In this document: one piece after another, positions 8,169-61,934 of the stretch | Layout: each line of letters begins with the position of its first letter | Numbering within the stretch: position 1 is the stretch's first letter | Assembly (NCBI GenBank): GCA_963708075.1 | Contig: OY970194.1 | Span: 3,616,001 to 3,680,000, forward strand | Origin: Sedimentisphaerales bacterium | GTDB lineage: Bacteria; Planctomycetota; Phycisphaerae; Sedimentisphaerales; Anaerobacaceae | Direction: 5' to 3' | DNA: 64,000 nucleotides | The notes under the pieces: generated by a model | Told to the model about the DNA's origin: nothing | Database searches by the model: none | Seen by the model: the letters and a program-made list of their open reading frames with translations, nothing else | Made by a program: the position numbers and the translations under genes

Positions 8169-8451
8169 TCAAGGATGTCCGGTTATGTTATCCTCTCTCC
8201 GGGTTCAGGAGTCAAGACGCGCCCGCAGGCTGTCAGTTCTAGCACTGTTCAGGATTGCGGAGAGCGGCGACGGAGGTCCTTATTCTCCCCCCTGTCGAAG
8301 GGCACAGTAGCCTGCGAATCCATATCCTATTGTAGGGACAAGTCGGGGGAGAGGCAAATGGAAACCAGGACAGTAGCCACTTGGCAGTTCTCGGTCGTCG
8401 CCGAAGAACCTTGTGAAGACCGCCGAGGGACAGTTTCCATTTGCCTTCGGT

Positions 8452-9156
8452 CTACCAGACGCCGGGGATCAGGCGGCGGGGAACTCGGGCGGCGTAGTCT
8501 TTGTAGCCTGGCAGTTCCTTTTGGAGCGTTCTGTCCTCCAGGATGGTTCGCACCACGAGGACTACCGTCGCGACGGCGGATGGGATCAGGGCGTACAAGG
8601 AGCCTAAGGACAGGGGAATGCCGGCCATCATGAAGAGGGCGCCGAGGTAGAGGGGGTGGCGGACGACGGCATAGGGGCCGGTGTCGATCACTTTGTGGCC
8701 TCGCTCGGTCTGGATTCGCACGCTCGGCTCGGCGAACTTGTTGACGCTCTCGGCCCAGATGGAAATGAGGTAGCCGATGCACAGCAGGATGTAGCCGAGG
8801 ACGATCAGCCAGGGCGGAACGCTGGACCAGTGGAATCGGCCGGAGTCGAAGGCGGCTAATGGGAACATCGCGGCGAATGAGAGCATCAGCGGCACGATCA
8901 GCGCTTTGTCCCAGCGTTTCGTGCCCGCACCGAACATCCTGCTTCGGGCAGCGAAGATTTCGGGGTTGGTGCGCCGCAGATAGATGATGCTCGGGACCGT
9001 CAAGACGAAGAAGACCAGGAGAAAGAGCCAGCCTTTCCACCAGCGGATATCGCCGGCGGGGAGGAAGATCAGGACGCCGAGAACGACGAAGGATATCCCA
9101 AGCGAGAGAATACCCCGCCCAAGCACGGCCGTCGGTCCCCGTTGTCCATCTGACAT
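8452..9156 (-). CDS. isoprenylcysteine carboxyl methyltransferase (ICMT) family membrane protein
   Basis: Multiple TM helices; HKVIDTGPYAVVRHPLYLG and EDRTL...LPGYKDYAARVPRRLIPGVW motifs; RBS before ATG 9156. Confidence 0.9.
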   Translation of the reverse strand: MSDGQRGPTAVLGRGILSLGISFVVLGVLIFLPAGDIRWWKGWLFLLVFFVLTVPSIIYLRRTNPEIFAARSRMFGAGTKRWDKALIVPLMLSFAAMFPLAAFDSGRFHWSSVPPWLIVLGYILLCIGYLISIWAESVNKFAEPSVRIQTERGHKVIDTGPYAVVRHPLYLGALFMMAGIPLSLGSLYALIPSAVATVVLVVRTILEDRTLQKELPGYKDYAARVPRRLIPGVW

Positions 9157-9345
9157 GTCCCTGACCCTCCCTGCTGACTCTTCCGACTCGTCCTGTAGAG
9201 CGTAGAGAACGCATAACTCGATTGTAGGCCCGGGCCAGGCGAAAGGCAAACGGAATCAAGATGGCGGTCGATACACGTGTCGCAAGGATTACTTACGTGC
9301 CTGTGGCGGGCCAACAAAAAAAGACGTGCAGCACCCGGATTTCGC

Positions 9346-9374
9346 TTGACAGGAAGTCTCGATGTTCGTATAGT
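9346..9374 (+). promoter_or_regulatory. near-consensus sigma70 promoter upstream of repeat array 1
   Basis: TTGACA (9346-9351) - 17 nt - TATAGT (9369-9374). Confidence 0.75.
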
Positions 9375-9552
9375 ATCTAAACAACTGAATAGAGAATCAT
9401 GGGCAGCGGTTTCGGAGGATCATGAGCGGCAAGATGCAAGTCCGCGTCAGTGGCCACAATACCCCAAAGTCCATCGCGGAGGCGCGGGAAATGAGATCAG
9501 AACCAATCCCCCCATGGATCATCTCCGCAGTCTGTGTGGCGAGGAATCTGTA

Positions 9553-10100
9553 TGTGAAACAAAGCCAATTGCGGGCCGGGGCTCTGGGATTGCGGATTGT
9601 CGATTGCGGAGTGCGGATTGAAGGACGGATGCCGGCAATGACACACATGCGCGGCGCGCAGAACGAGGCCAATTCGGCACGCCGGGGTCGGCCGCGAAAC
9701 AAAGCCAATTTTGGGAAGGATAGGTTATCTGGGAACAATAGAACATTGCGTGCGGGGCAGTCCCACCGCGAGCAGCCTTTGCGAAATAAAGCCAATTGCC
9801 ATGGCAAGACAAGGCCGAGACGGCCTCGCCACGCGGCTCCCGGCGAGTTGTGCGAAACAAAGCCAATCTATTGGCAGAGGGCAGCAGGCGAGAGGCGGCA
9901 GGCTGAAGGAAACTGCACGGATGACTCTGCGAAACAAAGCCAACTGGAGAGGCTGGAATTAACCCTAAGTCCTTTGTGGTAAAGCGGTTACGTTCAATTC
10001 CGCGAGAATGCGAAACAAAGCCAATTCCCGGACCGGGCTGCTGGCAGGCAATCCGGGGCGAGCGGGGACGCCGGCCCTGCTGCGCGAAACAAAGCCAACT
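9553..10100 (+). repeat. interspaced array 1: 8 copies of 18-nt (T/C)GCGAAACAAAGCCAA(T/C)T
   Basis: Copies start at 9553, 9657 (degenerate), 9693, 9780, 9851, 9928, 10009, 10083; spacers 86, 18, 69, 53, 59, 63, 56 nt. Confidence 0.95.
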
Positions 10101-10117
10101 GGCGGATGAGCGATATC

Positions 10118-10165
10118 AAAAAGCACGCCGGTCGAGGCGGGAGAGCTTTCCTGCCTCGACCGGCG
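10118..10165 (-). terminator. long GC-rich hairpin/terminator between array 1 and the GEVED gene
   Basis: CGCCGGTCGAGGCGGGA-loop-TCCTGCCTCGACCGGCG; A-run at 10118-10122 gives a U-tail on the minus strand. Confidence 0.7.
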
Positions 10166-10219
10166 GTGGGTTGCGTATTCGGTTCGGACCCGCAGAGCAC
10201 GCGGGGCCCCGGCGTTTTG

Positions 10220-12421
10220 TTACTTGGCCGGAGGTCTCTCGAAGGTGTTCCAGGCGACGCCTTCCGACTTCCACACCGCAGGCTGGCGCTCCAGCGTCAG
10301 TCTCTCAGTTTCGCTCATGGTATAGATGTGGCGATTCAGGCTGGCGGACCAGAAGCGATAGACGGGCTTTGTCCCGGCGGCCTTACTCTCCGGCGGGTAG
10401 GCGTAGAACACGATGCCTTCGTACTTCCACACGGTAGGAAAGTCGCGAATCAGTGAGGCCTTCTCAGTCTCGCTGATCGTGTAGAAGTATGCGTTATTCT
10501 TCGCGGAATAGAAGCGGTAGATCGGCGCCAGATTGGGATTGCCGGACTGTTGTCCGCCCTGATTCGTCAGTAATTCGAAGGCAAGGTCCCACTTGGTACC
10601 CCTGGGGTACTCGACAGACTCCCCCGCCAGCCAGCGGGCGCCGATGACCGGAGGCCAGGAGCCGGTGGATGAGCTGCCGGCGGCGACCTGTGAGACACGG
10701 GCTGCGGCGTTGTTGAAGGAGTACGGCCGGGTCGTCCAGCCCCATGGATTCAAAGGCGTGGGTGCACCCGTGTCATAAACGGCGGCGATGCTCAGCCAGT
10801 AAACGGTGGGCACCGATGCGCCGGTGGACCCGGTTGTCGGACTTTGATAGAACCATTCGTCCTGAGACAGCAGGCAGGTGAACTGGAAGCAGGTTTCGCC
10901 GCGATTGATCCCCCGCGGGTCGTCATCCTGCCCCGCCAGGTTCCACGTCCAGTGCGTACAATACGTCTCCCAGAGGAGGGTATTGGGGTGATTCGAATCG
11001 GCGGTCTTTCCGGGCGCATCCGTCCAAATGCCGATATGGAAAGCCAGCGGCTGCACGGACGGCAGCATGGGCTTGGTCCAGCTCTGGAAGGAGCCCCACC
11101 ACTGGAACCCCGTGATCGGCCGCTCATCGGTGCACTGCCAGTCATCGGCGTTGATCTGATGCAGATGCAGGCCGGAGACCTCGTCCCATCCACGGAATAT
11201 GAATGGCGTGGCGGCATCGGAACTCTGGGCCGGCTGGCTCCATTTGAGACCTCCCTTGCCGGCATTGGTTTGCGGCTCAAAGTCGCGCACCGCGGAAACC
11301 TTGTAGTCCTCCACCTCGCCATCCTGCGCCGGACCATAATAGGGCAACAGGCCCCGGGTGTTGAAACGGAACCTTGCATAGGTATCGCCGGGGGCAACGG
11401 TTGCCGGAATGCGGAAGGAAAGGTGGTTTACGCCGCTCCTGAGCAGCACATCCTCGAATATCTGCTCATCCCTGCCATCGAAACTGCCATCGCCGTCGAA
11501 ATCCATCCACGCATTCAGATAGCCCTGGACAGAGGCCGTCACGTCAATGGTGGCGGTTTCCCCGGGCGACAGGCTGCTGGTGAATTGAACTCCATCCTCG
11601 TCGTCGCGATCGTCGTCATCGCCGGTGGCGGACGCGGTCGGCCTGCCGTTGGACTCGGTGTCGACGCCGGCTCCCAGGTAGACCCCGGCGGAGACCAGGT
11701 GCCGGGCTCCATTGCTGGCGAGGGTAGTTCCATAGGAATCGGGAGCATCGCCATAGTCCTGCTGTGTCGGCTGCTGGGTGCCTCCGTCAGAGTCGCCGCC
11801 TTTGGCCCGGCATTCGCGCATGACCCCGCGATGGATATCGACGTTCCTTCCGCGGATATCGATCGAGACCCAGTCCGGGTTGTACTGCCCGATCGTAAGC
11901 TCCTTGTTTGGCTCCACGGATCCGGGGTTCTCCGGATTTCCTAGGAATACACTGTCGAGGGCCTGGAACTCCTCGCTGTCCATATACTTGGCTTCATCGC
12001 TTTCCGTCGGCGCATCGTCCGGCAAGGGGGGCCGGTTGCGGCCGAGTTGGGACCACTGCGGCGTAGCCCAATTGAAGCGGACATCGAAAGACACGCTTCT
12101 GGCGTAGTCGTTAGCCGTGATGAACACCCTGTAATATAGCAATCCTTCCCGATCGGGGCTGTACGGCTCGTTGTAGAACCACTGTCTCCAGCATCCGCTG
12201 GCAGGGTAATAATACCACGTGCCGCCGCCGTAACCGTCGCCCTCGCCCTGCACGTAGTCACCATTGTGATCCAGGACAATGCGGAAGAAAGAGCCCGGAA
12301 ACGCGCTCGGGTCTATCTCGAAGATCAAGTCGCGCGAATCGGCCCGGGCGGTGGAGCAGAAAAACGCGAGAATGAGGAACAGCAGCCATATCGGCAGTGG
12401 TCTGGATTGCGACTCGTTCAT
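10220..12421 (-). CDS. secreted multidomain protein with GEVED domain and C-terminal DUF5648-like repeat
   Basis: RBS AAGGAG before ATG 12421; signal peptide; DYGDAPDSYGT...DDEDGV...NAWMDFDGDG...GEVEDY; C-terminal PIYRFYS..FYTISETEK..WKYEGIVFYAY. Confidence 0.85.
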   Translation of the reverse strand: MNESQSRPLPIWLLFLILAFFCSTARADSRDLIFEIDPSAFPGSFFRIVLDHNGDYVQGEGDGYGGGTWYYYPASGCWRQWFYNEPYSPDREGLLYYRVFITANDYARSVSFDVRFNWATPQWSQLGRNRPPLPDDAPTESDEAKYMDSEEFQALDSVFLGNPENPGSVEPNKELTIGQYNPDWVSIDIRGRNVDIHRGVMRECRAKGGDSDGGTQQPTQQDYGDAPDSYGTTLASNGARHLVSAGVYLGAGVDTESNGRPTASATGDDDDRDDEDGVQFTSSLSPGETATIDVTASVQGYLNAWMDFDGDGSFDGRDEQIFEDVLLRSGVNHLSFRIPATVAPGDTYARFRFNTRGLLPYYGPAQDGEVEDYKVSAVRDFEPQTNAGKGGLKWSQPAQSSDAATPFIFRGWDEVSGLHLHQINADDWQCTDERPITGFQWWGSFQSWTKPMLPSVQPLAFHIGIWTDAPGKTADSNHPNTLLWETYCTHWTWNLAGQDDDPRGINRGETCFQFTCLLSQDEWFYQSPTTGSTGASVPTVYWLSIAAVYDTGAPTPLNPWGWTTRPYSFNNAAARVSQVAAGSSSTGSWPPVIGARWLAGESVEYPRGTKWDLAFELLTNQGGQQSGNPNLAPIYRFYSAKNNAYFYTISETEKASLIRDFPTVWKYEGIVFYAYPPESKAAGTKPVYRFWSASLNRHIYTMSETERLTLERQPAVWKSEGVAWNTFERPPAK

Positions 12422-13114
12422 GAATAAGCTCCTTAAGGCAGTTTTCCTTTGGGTGATGTCCCATCCATGGCAAGACGCGTTCTGCTGTCCGAACACACAT
12501 CCTGTGCGGAACGCCGGTATGGAATCGGCGTTTGACTGACCCTCCTCCAGAAAATCAGTGGCACATGCGCGAGACCTCTCTCCGTAGGGGTCCTCCAACC
12601 GGCTGGTGCCGATAATATACGGCGACAGCGATTGGAAATCAAGTGCCAGGAACGCACTTTTGGTAACGGAAATAACCGGAAATCCGGAAACTTTTCTGGA
12701 GCGACCCTCATGGCAAAGGCGAGGCCTCCGGACGCGATGCAGGTGATGTCGGCCATCAGCAGATGCTTGGGTGCCCAAGGCTGCCACACGTCCGAAAATA
12801 TGATTCCAACTGGACTTACGAGTGCTGACGGTGTAGATTGAAGGCATCCTGCCCCACTGGCGGCCGGCCGACAGAGGAGCAGCATCGCTCTCGGGGGATG
12901 CTTCCCTTGGTTTATCAGTTCGCAGTCAGGCATGATATAGAGATGCCCGGGCCGGACAGTATTTCTGTGTCTTGGATACGAGCGGATCGGTACGCAACAG
13001 CCGGCCTGCGGAAGGTCCGATATGCAAGTGCCCGCAAGGGCAAACGCAGTACGGGTCTTGTGCGTACGTAGAAGATCGAGCGGCTGAAAGCCGCGGAGAC
13101 AGAAGGATGTGACT

Positions 13115-28445: not shown

Positions 28446-28494
28446 CCGCTCTGATTGACACATCGCACGTGTATGTGAAAACAACTTGGCGGCC

Positions 28495-28587
28495 GGGTGG
28501 CAGCGGCAAGCGATAGCTTGCCGACGGCTCCTCCGATGCATAGCACCATCGGCAAGCTTCGCTGCTCTTCGCTTGCCGCTGCCACCC
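28495..28587. repeat. GGGTGGCAGC..GCTGCCACCC palindromic element (divergent copy)
   Basis: Terminal inverted arms shared with the copies at 29630, 52109 and 63456. Confidence 0.8.
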
Positions 28588-28740
28588 GGCACAACGTGCA
28601 AGACTTGCACAGACACCATGGCATCCAGAACAGGATAGAATTGTGTCACCATGAGGGGTATCATAGTCGTCTGGTGGCCTCGGGATGTGTCCGGGGTTCG
28701 TGATCGGTCATGCCAGAGTCGAGTCCGGAGAAAGGAGAAC

Positions 28741-58573: not shown

Positions 58574-60715
58574 TCAGCGAGTTCGCTCCTTTTTCGACTT
58601 GCCCGGCTGACGGCCGGCTGCCGTTTGTCCGCTCAATTCATCGACGAGGCGGTCGGCTCGATAGACCTTTCGCAGGGCTTCGAGGATCGACGCCGAATGG
58701 ACCGACACGGCCCGGGCCTCCTTCTCCGTATAGGTGAAATCGAGGACCAGCGACTGGATGTTGCCGTCGAAGATGATCCCGACGAACTCTCCCTTGCGAT
58801 TGACGACGGGGCTGCCGGAGTTGCCGCCGATGATGTCCGCCGTCGAGACGAAGTTGAAAGGCGTCTTGAGGTTGAGCTTGCTCTTCTGCTTGAGCCAGAG
58901 CTCGGGCAGCTCGAATGGCGGCTGGTTACCCTGCTCCTGGGCACGCTCGTAAAGGCCGGCAAAAGTCGTCCACGGCGGAATCTGCTTACCCTGCTCCGTG
59001 TAGCCCTTGACCTCCCCGAAGGCCAGCCGCAGCGTGAACGTGGCATCGGGATAGATGTCCGTTCCATAAATGGCGAATCTCGCGTTCGCCAGCTTCGCGT
59101 AAGCCTGGCGCATCGGCTCTTCAACCTGCTCCTCATACGTCTTTCGCAAGTCCCTTGCCGGCTCATTCACGAGCAGGGCCAGTTGGATCATGGGGTCTTT
59201 CGACTGGCGAATCCCTTCCGGTTTCTGCGCCGCCAGCTCCTTGCGGAATGCGACATCCTTGAGCTTCGTGCCATTGATGAGCTCTGCCGCCCGATCCCGC
59301 GGCGACTTGCCTCCGAGCACGTCCTTGACCAGCGGATCGCCCGGCCCTTTCATCTCCACGAATCTCATCAACGAATCGGCCAACAGGATCGTTTCCAAGT
59401 CCTCGTAGATCGGGGCCTCCGAGAACAGCTCGAACTTGAGCGACTCAAGATTCGATTCGCGGTACTCACGCAGCCGCTCGGGATTCGGCTTGGCCGACTC
59501 GTCGGCCAATCGCACCAACGTCCGGGCAATGCCAAAAAGACGGGTGCTGAAGGCGGACCCCTGTTCCAGCAGGTCCCAGTCATAGTAGATCCCGTCCCAG
59601 GTTTTCAGAGCGGCGGCCACATCGGCCCACGGATCGCCGACGGGCTCCTTAAGCTGCGAGCCCTTCTCCTGGATGGCCCCGCGGAGTTTCTCCTCTTCCG
59701 CGCGTTTGCGATCCATGATGGCAGGGTCCTGGAGTCCGGCGAGCATGCCGAGCCGGGCCTTGCGGCTGTTCTGGACGCCGAACAGGTCGTCCTGTGCGCG
59801 GCGGGCGTTCTCCCGGCTCTCGGCACTGTAGGCGGACAACATGACCTCCGCGCGGAACAGCCTTTGCAGCCGGTATGGGAAAACCTTGTCGCGGAGGAAC
59901 TCGATGTGCGCCATGGTGTCGAGCCGGTCGGTCCGACCGGGATGGCCCGAGACGAATACCAGCTCGCCATCGCCCGCGCCCTTCGGGCTCCACTTCAGGT
60001 AGTGCTCGATCCTGGCGGGCTTGCCATCCTCGTACACGCGGAACAGGCAGATATCAAGGTCGTAGCGGGGATACTCGAAGTTGTCCGGATCGCCGCCGAA
60101 GAAAGCGATGTCCTTTTCGGGCGCGAAGACCAGTCGAACGTCGGTGTACTTCTTGAACCGGTAAAGGTGGTACATGCCGCCGTGATAAAGCGTCACGACA
60201 TCGCTCCGCAGCCCTGTCTTATCGAGCGATTCCTTCTCGACGGTGTTCATCGCCGCCCGGCGGGCCTGGTTGGCCTCGGCCGGGGTCATCTCCGGCTTGA
60301 CCGCTGCGTTGATCCGCTCGGTCACGTCCTCGATGTTCTGCAGCACGTTCAGCTCCAGGTCCACGCACCGGACCTCCTCCTGCAAGGTCTTGGCGTAGAA
60401 GCCCAGGGCGATCAAGTCTTTTTCTTTGGTGCTCAGCTTCTGCAGACAGTCGGCGCCGACGTGGTGATTCGTCAGCACCAGCCCATCGGCGGAGACGAAC
60501 GAACCCGACCCGCCGCTATTGAAGCGAACGCTGGACCGCTGCAAGTGGGTATACCACTCCTGCCCCGGGGCGAAATTGTACTTCTCCTTGAGCAGCTTTT
60601 CCGGCGGATTGTTGAACAGCCACATCCCTTCATCCGCCGGCGCCTCGGTCGGGATCAGGCAGATCATCACAGTCATCGGGAGAATCGGACACATCCATCT
60701 GGTCAGGTGATTCAT
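58574..60715 (-). CDS. S46 family dipeptidyl peptidase
   Basis: DEGMW, GSGSFVS, LTNHHV, DVRLVFAP, FGGDPDNFEYPR, YPDATFTLRL, DIIGGNSGSP, FDGN. Confidence 0.95.
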   Translation of the reverse strand: MNHLTRWMCPILPMTVMICLIPTEAPADEGMWLFNNPPEKLLKEKYNFAPGQEWYTHLQRSSVRFNSGGSGSFVSADGLVLTNHHVGADCLQKLSTKEKDLIALGFYAKTLQEEVRCVDLELNVLQNIEDVTERINAAVKPEMTPAEANQARRAAMNTVEKESLDKTGLRSDVVTLYHGGMYHLYRFKKYTDVRLVFAPEKDIAFFGGDPDNFEYPRYDLDICLFRVYEDGKPARIEHYLKWSPKGAGDGELVFVSGHPGRTDRLDTMAHIEFLRDKVFPYRLQRLFRAEVMLSAYSAESRENARRAQDDLFGVQNSRKARLGMLAGLQDPAIMDRKRAEEEKLRGAIQEKGSQLKEPVGDPWADVAAALKTWDGIYYDWDLLEQGSAFSTRLFGIARTLVRLADESAKPNPERLREYRESNLESLKFELFSEAPIYEDLETILLADSLMRFVEMKGPGDPLVKDVLGGKSPRDRAAELINGTKLKDVAFRKELAAQKPEGIRQSKDPMIQLALLVNEPARDLRKTYEEQVEEPMRQAYAKLANARFAIYGTDIYPDATFTLRLAFGEVKGYTEQGKQIPPWTTFAGLYERAQEQGNQPPFELPELWLKQKSKLNLKTPFNFVSTADIIGGNSGSPVVNRKGEFVGIIFDGNIQSLVLDFTYTEKEARAVSVHSASILEALRKVYRADRLVDELSGQTAAGRQPGKSKKERTR

Positions 60716-60843: not shown

Positions 60844-61490
60844 AATTGGCTTTGTTTCGCACGACAGGTTCTTGGCCGTCTTGCAGGGCGGGCCATACCT
60901 ACCATCTGTCCGGCAGAGCAAATTGGCTTTGTTTCGCACAGTCGCGTCCCCACTCACCCGAGGTCGCCTGTCCCGTCCTCGGAATTGGCTTTGTTTCGCA
61001 GACCAGTCCAGCATGTGGAATTGGCTTTGTTTTGCGCGCCCGCCCATGTCCGCCACTGCCGGCATTCGCCCCTATTCCGCATTCCGCACTCCGCATTCTC
61101 AGGTTCCTGGCCCCGAATTGGCTTTGTTTCACAAGATCACCCATGCGGTTCACTCCTACCCGCTGCCCGCTGCCTGTCCCCGCCTTAGCAATTGGCTTTG
61201 TTTGGCGCGACCGGGCCACCCAGGAATTGGGTTTGTTTTGAATACTGCGCGTCGGCTTCCTGCAACCCAGCATTTCCCACTCCCGAACCAGGGTTTCCAT
61301 AAATTGGCTTTGTTTCGCAAGGTAGGGCGAGCGTCCCCGCTCGCCCCCGATTGCCGTCCAGGCCCGACCCCGAAATTGGCTTTGTTTCGCACGCCTGCCC
61401 ATGTTGGTGTTGCCGATATCCGCCTTTCATTCCGCACTCCGCATTCCGCATTCCCACGGCCCCCCGGCCCGTAATTGGCTTTGTTTCGCC
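60844..61490 (-). repeat. interspaced array 2: 10 copies of the same 18-nt motif (AATTGGCTTTGTTTCGCA on +)
   Basis: Copies start at 60844, 60921, 60983, 61019, 61116, 61190, 61225, 61302, 61374, 61473; spacers 59, 44, 18, 79, 56, 17, 59, 54, 81 nt. Confidence 0.95.
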
Positions 61491-61934
61491 TAACTTGGCG
61501 CCCACCGGCGGCGGCTTGTGCTCCAGTGGTCACGGAAAGCCCTCCGGGGATTCATGGCTTGTTGATGTTTGATTTTTGATTTGAGCAGGGCCTGGCGGGG
61601 CGCACCGACACCCGATGAAATTTGGTCATCAGACCATATACTAGAGACGCTCCGAGAAGCAAATTGTTGCAGGAATTTATGTTAGATAGTAAAATACCCC
61701 TAAGTCCTCATGGCCCGGAGACTTAAATCGCAATATTCTTGCGCATAAGTGGAAGGCAGGCGTAAGTTCGTAGGATGGGCTTTAGCCCATGCGGACGGGT
61801 CTGGAATTGCCAAGCCAGGAACTGCATGCGCCCTTCTTCTTCCTGTGACCGCTTCCTTTGCATTCCTGTCGGCCCGCCTATAGAATACGGGCAACGCCGC
61901 GGCCTGTGGTGCTCTTGAGGACAGAGTACGACCT

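Follow-up and report, generated by a model that had tools for sequence, protein, structure and literature searches.

Sponge RNAs such as CsrB and RsmZ (for CsrA/RsmA) and CrcZ and CrcY (for Hfq/Crc) are transcripts of a few hundred nucleotides (nt) that carry many copies of a short single-stranded motif. Several of them are found per genome, they are transcribed from dedicated promoters (sigma-54 in the case of CrcZ), and it is the number of motifs that matters, not the intervening sequence. To our knowledge, almost nothing is known about post-transcriptional control in the Planctomycetota. A different arrangement has been described for the CcaF1-CcsR1-4 ('cuckoo' RNA) locus of Rhodobacter sphaeroides and its relatives. 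There, the gene of a small RNA-binding protein is followed by repeated small RNAs (sRNAs) cut from its 3′ untranslated region (UTR), the locus is under RpoHI/HII control, the CcaF1 protein binds RNAs from its own 3′ UTR, and duplicated CcsR arrays, some with sigma-70 promoters, are only weakly tied to the gene (Grutzner et al. 2021, PMC8034643). Here we report on array 1, a series of interspersed copies of an 18-nt A-rich motif, and on the family to which it belongs. Array 1 lies in a stretch of 64,000 nt, called the window in the following, from a Sedimentisphaerales bacterium of the Planctomycetota (GenBank assembly GCA_963708075.1, contig OY970194.1, positions 3,616,001 to 3,680,000 of the forward strand).

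We observe a family of arrays that obeys one strand and promoter logic, is linked to an unannotated protein-coding gene (gene X), and shows positional conservation of array 1 together with selective conservation of the motif. The feature is real and not due to chance, and it is neither a CRISPR array nor a protein gene. The explanation that we prefer, with a probability of about 0.45, is that the arrays are multivalent RNAs that would offer single-stranded motif copies to one factor, possibly the gene X protein. The family seems to be undescribed. Rfam 15 gave no match at gathering thresholds in the window, as the initial annotation had supposed in recognising no known RNA family, and at E ≤10 only seven chance-level rows of miRNA and lncRNA models were obtained for positions 9200–10300. 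Searches of the literature returned the 13-nt core of the motif only in unrelated contexts and nothing pertinent on repeats or non-coding RNAs of Planctomycetes. The elements that appear new are the link to gene X, the use of promoters of three classes, the conservation of array position while the motif is selectively retained, a signal of open reading frames (ORFs) across the arrays and a pairing of antisense and sense motif copies in congeners.

The core GAAACAAAGCCAA was searched across the window with up to 2 mismatches and compared with 100 shuffles, yielding 19 matches versus 1.10 ± 1.07 in the shuffled sequences. Array 1 extends over 9553–10100 on the plus strand, with the full motif form (T/C)G(C/T)GAAACAAAGCCAA(T/C)T. 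Seven core copies are located at 9556–10098, six of them exact and one with a single mismatch, and their start-to-start spacings are 140, 87, 71, 77, 81 and 74 nt. The initial annotation had counted eight direct copies. Seven of these are clear; the eighth, at about 9660–9673, is degenerate (10 of 14 positions matching by eye) and absent from the output of the search with up to 2 mismatches. Array 1 and its surroundings comprise the following features:

9346–9374, plus strand: sigma-70-type promoter TTGACA-N17-TATAGT, 11 of 12 consensus positions
9382–9394, plus strand: conserved leader box CAACTGAATAGAG, right after the presumed transcription start
9414–9470, plus strand: GGAGGA and ATG (9422) with first codons MSGKMQVRVSG..., read as a decayed start of gene X
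9553–9570, plus strand: motif copy 1 (TGTGAAACAAAGCCAATT)
9571–9692, plus strand: family-0 module with a run of GCGGAUU/GCGGAGU heptads and many GGA, holding the degenerate eighth copy
9693–9710, plus strand: motif copy 2
9780–9797, plus strand: motif copy 3, with the single mismatch (GAAATAAAGCCAA)
9851–9868, plus strand: motif copy 4
9928–9945, plus strand: motif copy 5; the next module is recognisably conserved in the orthologous arrays of two congeners (G013 and G007)
10009–10026, plus strand: motif copy 6; the next module belongs to family 4, also found in array 2
10083–10100, plus strand: motif copy 7, the last one
10126–10165, no strand assigned: strong hairpin, followed on the minus strand by the U-tract GUGCUUUUUGAUAU

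The promoter was thus found as first described, and the leader, initially put at about 180 nt, measures about 172 nt if counted from a presumed start near 9381 up to position 9553, where the first motif begins. The same promoter class together with its downstream box stands before five further arrays of the genome. In the form CAAC[TGC][GC]AAT[AG]G the box occurs upstream of 6 out of 38 arrays versus 0.02 expected from 38 random 400-nt windows, and in all six, array 1 included, it sits after the sigma-70 promoter. The strong hairpin that had been assigned to the end of the array is real, with arms of 20 nt, a folding energy of −46.3 kcal/mol and a z score of −5.95. Judged from its sequence, it is primarily the intrinsic terminator of the convergent gene at 10220–12847 (domains DUF7901, DUF5648 and GEVED), because the U-tract follows it on the minus strand. 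At best it may be a two-way terminator that stops the array 1 transcript as well.

Array 1 is one member of a genome-wide family. The genome consists of a single 7.5-Mb contig with 60% G+C and an estimated completeness of 92.8%. It contains 204 exact copies of the 13-mer versus none of the reversed control. With up to 2 mismatches there are 413 matches, of which 283 fall into 38 same-strand arrays of 3–13 copies each. In the logo of the 283 in-array copies, (T)G(C/T)GAAACAAAGCCAAT(T) stands out as conserved; the information content drops to background on either side, limiting the conservation to about 17–18 nt. Start-to-start spacings range from 32 to 375 nt and the fillers between motifs from about 15 to more than 120 nt. 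The 245 fillers form 130 clusters: 136 belong to 21 multi-member families (35, 22, 18 and 11 members, the remainder smaller) and 109 are singletons. Family 0, with 35 members across 19 arrays, is often the first module. The arrays are mosaics of module families, and some contain one 87-nt unit five times in succession. We noticed heptad runs in several of these modules, GCGGAUU/GCGGAGU at positions 9586–9630 of the window and elsewhere, and other heptads in further modules, while AAUCAAA heptads are found in the leaders with promoters of the extracytoplasmic function (ECF) class.

Interspaced direct repeats behind a leader are reminiscent of a degenerate or atypical CRISPR array, and the motif contains GAAAC, the sequence with which many CRISPR repeats end. 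The conserved repeat is only about 18 nt long, against roughly 23–50 nt for CRISPR repeats, and the irregular fillers belong to common families, as would not be expected of spacers, with 38 arrays in one genome and the same fillers recurring in distant genomes. Cas6 (PF10040), the only cas family searched for, had no match in the whole genome at its completeness of 92.8%. In agreement with the initial annotation, which had rejected this assignment, we give a CRISPR origin next to no chance.

Promoters were scored upstream of the arrays on the motif strand, as ECF-type (TG[ACT]AAC-N15-17-CGTYT), sigma-70 (at least 10 of 12 matches) or sigma-54 (TGGCAC-N5-TTGC), with the expectation taken from random 400-nt windows. 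A promoter precedes 28 of the 38 arrays: 15 are ECF-type, 11 sigma-70 and 2 sigma-54, versus 0.02, 0.68 and 0.06 expected per 38, respectively; nine arrays lack a promoter under strict rules. Among the loci listed from other Planctomycetota, 23 of 48 scorable arrays have an upstream promoter versus 0 of 48 antisense downstream controls, 21 further arrays of other genomes being too close to the end of the locus for scoring. From this logic we infer that the arrays are transcription units on the motif strand. The same promoters also bear on the idea that the arrays are binding sites on DNA, which would serve a DNA-binding protein, or the part of an ECF sigma factor that recognises the -35 box, as a decoy or organising platform. 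The motif begins with (T)G(C/T)GAAAC, its TGTGAAAC variants hold the TGAAAC -35 box of the family's own ECF-type promoters, and its sequence is conserved without a conserved fold. Yet DNA sites would need neither a promoter nor a fixed orientation to it, and both are the rule here. The logo shows no CGTCT resembling a -10 box at the proper distance behind the motif, and there is no link to replication direction (15 arrays on the plus and 23 on the minus strand, intermixed). We therefore consider sites for a DNA-binding protein a very improbable explanation.

The complete form of the family includes gene X, an unannotated gene whose helical product (label P0001) is about 175 aa long, with its first 165–175 residues conserved. 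Nine copies are present in the genome, e.g. at G000:C1:940929-941453. Eight of them are followed on the same strand by an array of at least 3 motif copies at a distance of 49–216 nt, and the ninth, which is frameshifted, has two motif copies about 250 nt downstream. Among the matches listed from other Planctomycetota, all three loci that hold gene X have it upstream of the array and on the same strand. Within the genus, gene X was found in 21 of 23 congeners, and a sense motif lies within 1.5 kb downstream at 34 of 44 loci. The median number of gene X matches per genome is 20 in array-rich and 5 in array-poor congeners (Spearman 0.50; these relatives are not independent). Because of this linkage in cis, the gene X protein is the obvious candidate for the binding factor.

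The protein family is very large, with 23,004 cluster representatives matching at E ≤0.001 and 6,031 at E ≤1e-10; those clusters that carry a name are called 'hypothetical protein', stem mostly from Planctomycetota, and were the only kind returned by the ESM Atlas. The invariant residues of gene X lie in a basic N-terminal motif, ANRxNAxKSTGPRTxEGKxxxxxNAxKHGL. In the predicted model (pLDDT 79) the protein consists of helices only and contains a long helical hairpin. Neither Pfam (0 families at E ≤1) nor NCBIfam, PADLOC, PHROGs or a PDB sequence search gave a match to gene X, and just one of 51 aligned homologues has a Pfam match, an unrelated one. At the structural level, Foldseek returned nothing at E ≤0.001 and VIA-align only generic helical hairpins or coiled coils with Z up to 7.7. 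Relatives of gene X are present on 23 IMG/VR contigs. A 45-residue version of the N-terminal motif (RRxNAQKSTGPxTxEGK...NxWKHG) was observed inside otherwise different 259–292-aa proteins of viral contigs (L216, L222 and others in L205–L227), and at one end of a 36-kb viral contig there is a complete homologue of gene X with motif-like sequences behind it (reverse-frame translations, by eye). The gene X-linked arrays 5, 10, 11, 13, 14, 27 and 33 end in a common block of about 165 nt (e.g. 942026–942190) that holds the T-arm-like GGCTCGAATCCGCC; aragorn reported no tRNA or tmRNA gene in the 7 sequences downstream of gene X-linked arrays.

The 29 orphan arrays outnumber the 9 gene-bearing units. 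By eye, orphan leaders keep a ribosome-binding site, a start codon and the decayed first codons of gene X, as in array 1; clearer remnants exist in further orphan leaders, such as 'ARIVPDRRDAGK' against the gene X consensus 'AQIxANRxNAQK'. With no stop ahead of the array, gene callers stretch gene X to 200–450 aa. They also place spurious ORFs on orphan arrays, and recognition of the family would clean up the annotation.

The CcaF1-CcsR locus (PMC8034643) is the nearest known layout to the gene X arrays: in both cases a small protein gene is followed by repeated units in the same transcript and the promoter is one for an alternative, stress-related sigma factor. The differences concern the defining features. 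The gene X product is all-helical, about 175 aa long, and has no match to DUF1127 or any other Pfam family. Its motif is a linear A-rich 18-mer, whereas the CcsR units are reported as paired hairpins with CCUCCUCCC loops; the fillers are heterogeneous and the genome contains 38 arrays, compared with one or two described for CcsR. In addition, the gene X frame runs into the array, unlike in the CcaF1-CcsR locus as reported there, and Rfam does not recognise the arrays.

Type III antitoxin RNAs of the ToxI kind form another combination of repeats and gene, in which near-identical tandem repeats of about 34–36 nt precede an endoribonuclease toxin gene. The array units are heterogeneous, and the linked gene X lies upstream, encodes an all-helical protein and has no PADLOC match.

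Conservation was followed through the neighbouring gene at 8327–9259 (minus strand), which is divergent from array 1 and encodes a 310-aa predicted membrane protein without Pfam match. It has homologues in three congeners with 47–51% protein identity. In two of these (G013 and G007) a 7-copy array occupies the same divergent position next to the homologue, while in the third (G005) no array lies within 1.5 kb of it. Between array 1 and its two orthologues the 18-mers are 81–86% identical and the fillers 47–52%; only one or two modules are recognisably orthologous and some modules have been turned over. The retention of the motif while the fillers drift points to selection on the motif, its number and rough spacing, and not on most fillers. 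Conservation of position and motif also favours a function and disfavours a recent insertion at this site.

The initial annotation had left it open whether such a modular RNA is processed into units or presents many sites to one protein. Many sites for one factor fits better and a set of distinct sRNAs fits worse, because orthologues conserve the motif and not the fillers. In a precursor of many sRNAs, which RNase E or a dedicated nuclease would cleave at every A-rich motif, the modules would act separately and the motif would be a processing signal only. The layout of CcsR1-4, which RNase E reportedly cuts from the ccaF1 3′ UTR (PMC8034643), would match this. Module families are common to arrays and genomes, as expected of such a precursor, with more than half of the fillers in multi-member families and a 91–93-nt module that occurs at least 33 times in at least 27 loci of other genomes. 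Moreover, at one locus of a Bryobacteraceae metagenome-assembled genome (MAG) contig, L072:551-1700, a small motif array lies 10 nt behind the end of a solitary gene of the Cas6 family (PF10040, E 1.2e-13), an adjacency that may be due to chance at this single locus. Target-specific sRNAs would not be expected to be about 50% identical or replaced between orthologous arrays that keep the motif, however. The 109 singleton fillers, the missing consensus structure of the most conserved module and the absence of a Cas6 match from the genome studied here likewise do not fit, and we regard a precursor of separately acting sRNAs as rather unlikely.

Our preferred reading of array 1 as a multivalent RNA can be outlined as follows. 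The strong sigma-70 promoter would drive an RNA of about 750–800 nt from this stand-alone array, an 'orphan' of the family whose complete form is a promoter, gene X and a motif or array in the 3′ part of the transcript. This RNA would contain seven 18-nt A-rich motifs, eight with the degenerate copy, among G-rich fillers that are free to vary. The A-rich halves of the motifs would remain unpaired and provide many identical docking sites for one trans-acting factor, most plausibly the predicted gene X protein. With promoters of the sigma-70, ECF or sigma-54 type, the factor could be titrated, gathered or delivered under differing conditions. Cutting at the motifs into units would be possible, comparable to RNase E in the CcaF1-CcsR system. 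The promoter logic, the one fixed strand, the conservation of motif rather than filler and an accessible A-rich half favour such a many-sited single-stranded RNA, and its action at the RNA level, as sponge or scaffold for this binder, is what we deduce from them. In predicted structures the mean probability of being unpaired, P(unpaired), is 0.64 in the 13-mer versus 0.35 elsewhere, and it reaches 0.58–0.89 over GAAACAAA.

In this mode of action the CsrB/CrcZ-type sponges are the nearest known relatives. With 13 invariant bases the array motif is longer and stricter than the sponge motifs GGA or AAnAAnAA. The genome has no match to Hfq (PF17209) and the arrays none in Rfam, which separates them from CrcZ-type sponges. 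The genome does contain CsrA, and some part in connection with CsrA may be conceived for the family-0 modules; the motif itself lacks GGA, and GGA runs occur in family 0 only, which together with the Rfam result sets the arrays apart from CsrB/RsmZ, whose many GGA motifs stand in hairpin loops. Membership in the CcsR, CsrB or CrcZ families consequently fails on defining features, namely no DUF1127, no Rfam match and a different motif. Reading the family as a protein-linked multi-motif regulatory RNA, we see a sizeable chance that its true nature is more remote from the systems known so far.

Several observations weigh against a multivalent RNA. The high P(unpaired) of the motif is largely due to composition, and the entire array 1 transcript is no better folded than shuffles (z −0.5). 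The best-conserved module has no consensus fold in RNAalifold (33 sequences), hence there is no covariation support for RNA. The gene X protein has no recognisable RNA-binding fold, its best structural matches being the generic helical hairpins mentioned above. Furthermore, the gene X frame is free of stops up to the array and across every motif copy in 7 of the 8 linked arrays, where the other two frames close within 13–86 nt. Across the whole family, one ORF spans 14 of 38 arrays versus 8.9 ± 1.6 after shuffling of the unit order, and sense-strand stop triplets in the fillers are depleted (312 versus 397 ± 15) whereas antisense ones are not. In congeners, finally, the sense motif copy stands in a preferred phase inside the gene X frame and is read as CET[NK]PI at 28 of 34 loci, which hints at translation or a role at the DNA level. 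The patchy spread described below, from 0 to 354 copies within the genus and rare in an even sample of the phylum, resembles that of a mobile or selfish element.

The congener arrangement deserves a closer description. Array-poor congeners have a gene X tail with two motif copies, an antisense ATTGGCTTCGTTTG and a sense GAAACGAA[GC]CCAAT (loci L126, L140–L170, G001–G023). The antisense copy is always read as ELASFG or ELGSFG (33 of 33 loci). Both copies pair at the base of a hairpin of 120–300 nt in 10 of 10 loci checked; its arms consist of heptad repeats, and the distance between the antisense and sense copy varies.

These data could mean that the arrays are coding, giving gene X variable low-complexity C-terminal tails and the orphans basic peptides, with the motif acting as a DNA site of recombination or slippage. 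Reshuffled variable tails are known from shufflons and PE-PGRS-type families. The open gene X frame, the spanned arrays, the sense-only stop depletion and the congener readings, which are kept despite variable distances, all speak for translation, as do ORFs of 270 and 264 aa over all 7 copies of the orthologous arrays in G013 and G007. The phases contradict it. Inside the array 1 ORF 9422–9982 the motif is read in all three frames (by eye), and genome-wide the unit lengths modulo 3 are 0, 1 and 2 in 104, 64 and 77 cases, which supports the initial annotation in taking the repeat for no protein repeat. The ORF crosses 5 of the 7 motif copies and then stops. The two orthologous ORFs run in other phases, and BLASTP of the 9422–9982 product against them reached best E values of 0.043 and 0.087, based on motif-encoded peptides only; a Pfam match was not found either. 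ORF 9422–9982 is not a conserved protein, and the array was rightly called non-coding in this sense. Of the orphans, only 13 of 29 have a Shine-Dalgarno sequence and a start whose ORF enters the array, and shuffled arrays are already 60% 'open' from composition. Translation into variable tails thus seems quite unlikely to us. The open frames across a repeat that is conserved only as nucleotides pose a puzzle, and together with the antisense/sense facts they keep the readings as a translated tail and as a DNA element alive.

The distribution of the family is uneven. Exact motif copies number between 0 and 354 per genome within the genus. Among 300 other genomes sampled evenly across the phylum, GAAACRAASCCAAT occurs 1–4 times in 33, little above the reversed control, and gene X in 21. 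In species-representative genomes, where at least 93 stretches matched in all phyla together, arrays with the same 18-mer and modules appear in MAGs labelled as Pirellulales, Phycisphaerae, Sedimentisphaerales, Planctomycetaceae, Isosphaeraceae and Bryobacterales.

Selfish or mobile DNA would account for such a pattern. Gene X and the ends would be the autonomous element and the orphan arrays its non-autonomous deletion derivatives, keeping the promoter and motif ends; the motif would be the DNA site of the element's protein, and arrays would grow by one-ended events or recombination between motifs. The excess of orphans with a retained 5′ leader and decayed gene start fits this scheme, and so do identical motifs and modules in Pirellulales, Phycisphaerae and Planctomycetaceae MAGs and in Bryobacterales (among the matches listed), the congener pairs, which form terminal inverted repeats of a 120–300-nt palindromic unit, and the very large, unannotated gene X family with relatives on viral contigs. 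Against mobility, array 1 is old and retained, given that three species have it in an unchanged place and with seven copies each, their flanking genes being just 47–51% identical in protein. Gene X shows no transposase, recombinase or nuclease signature, and a search of 72,556 plasmids gave no match to it. At the one locus examined neither target duplications nor empty sites were found, and strong promoters of three sigma classes would be superfluous for a DNA parasite. We judge a selfish element to be unlikely, about on a par with the precursor of sRNAs.

Known modular repeats offer partial parallels for such an element. BIME/REP of E. coli and BOX of Streptococcus pneumoniae are intergenic multi-copy units with boxes in varying number and order that are often transcribed; the REP unit is a 20–40-nt palindrome that forms a stem-loop and is associated with a RAYT transposase. 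The arrays resemble them as modular, intergenic, multi-copy mosaics. They differ in a non-palindromic motif (no inverted repeat was reported at the motif in the repeat analysis of array 1), their own strong promoters, the fixed orientation, the tie to a protein gene and the positional conservation of one array. Rickettsia palindromic elements are inserted in frame in genes, as is the congener 120–300-nt palindromic unit, which lies inside the gene X frame and is read through. Here, in contrast, the host gene family and position are always the same, and the genome studied multiplies the sense half only, outside any conserved protein.

A broader formulation, which we put forward tentatively and with less confidence than the multivalent RNA, is that gene X and the 18-nt motif form an unrecognised protein-nucleic-acid system. 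The very large protein family would recognise a signature in the 3′ part of its own transcript, and in some lineages this signature would have been multiplied into dozens of gene-less arrays under separate regulation by ECF, sigma-54 and sigma-70 promoters. Such arrays would be either a genome-wide decoy or scaffold network for the protein or the non-autonomous form of a novel mobile element, one that passes between Planctomycetota and Acidobacteriota while staying open to ribosomes. The 38 promoter-driven arrays would be a major network of regulatory RNAs in the phylum or else a genetic element of a new type, and either way they give a first handle on the function of an unannotated protein family with tens of thousands of members.

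Beyond the first reading of array 1, the analysis added the 38 arrays with their common module families, the tie to gene X with its decayed start in the leader, the open frame and the ownership of the hairpin. Further candidate explanations were tried and rejected. A graveyard of dispersed repeats was discarded, since copies outside arrays exist for only 51 of 245 fillers, mainly those of families 0, 2, 10 and 13 and including a module related to the palindromic dispersed repeat described below. The 15 isolated motif copies (up to 1 mismatch) resemble mini-arrays in their usual context and not antisense targets, and around none of the arrays of this genome is there an antisense copy of the motif between −700 and +400 nt. 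That arrays serve downstream genes as 5′ leaders was dismissed with 17 co-oriented versus 21 convergent cases, i.e. no bias in a crude and noisy ORF-based count. As for reverse-strand terminators, the reverse complement of the motif resembles a U-tract after a weak stem in 3 places between 9200 and 10400, and most units have no stem. Matches to the double motif in Alphaproteobacteria, Clostridia and Thaumarchaeota are probably unrelated; they have the 13-mer in common but are different repeats, namely coding repeats, tandems of nothing but 18-nt units, or a unit of 90 nt next to gene starts. At the L072 locus, an IS1595-like transposase fragment is located downstream of the array (by eye).

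The second array of the window comprises:

60846–61487, minus strand: array 2 with 10 motif copies; its module families 0, 1 and 4 are common with other arrays
61645–61671, minus strand: ECF-type promoter TGCAAC-N16-CGTCT of array 2

Behind the promoter come an (AAUCAAA)n leader and, as what remains of the gene X start, GGAGG-GTG; array 2 ends about 130 nt ahead of a gene that starts at 60714 on the minus strand. Arrays 1 and 2 have the module families 0 and 4 in common. A palindromic dispersed repeat about 96 nt long (GGTGGCAGCGGCAAGC...GCTTGCCGCTGCCACCC), with more than 100 copies on both strands of the genome, is represented once in the window, at 28492–28588, and one of its arms is related to the array modules of family 2.

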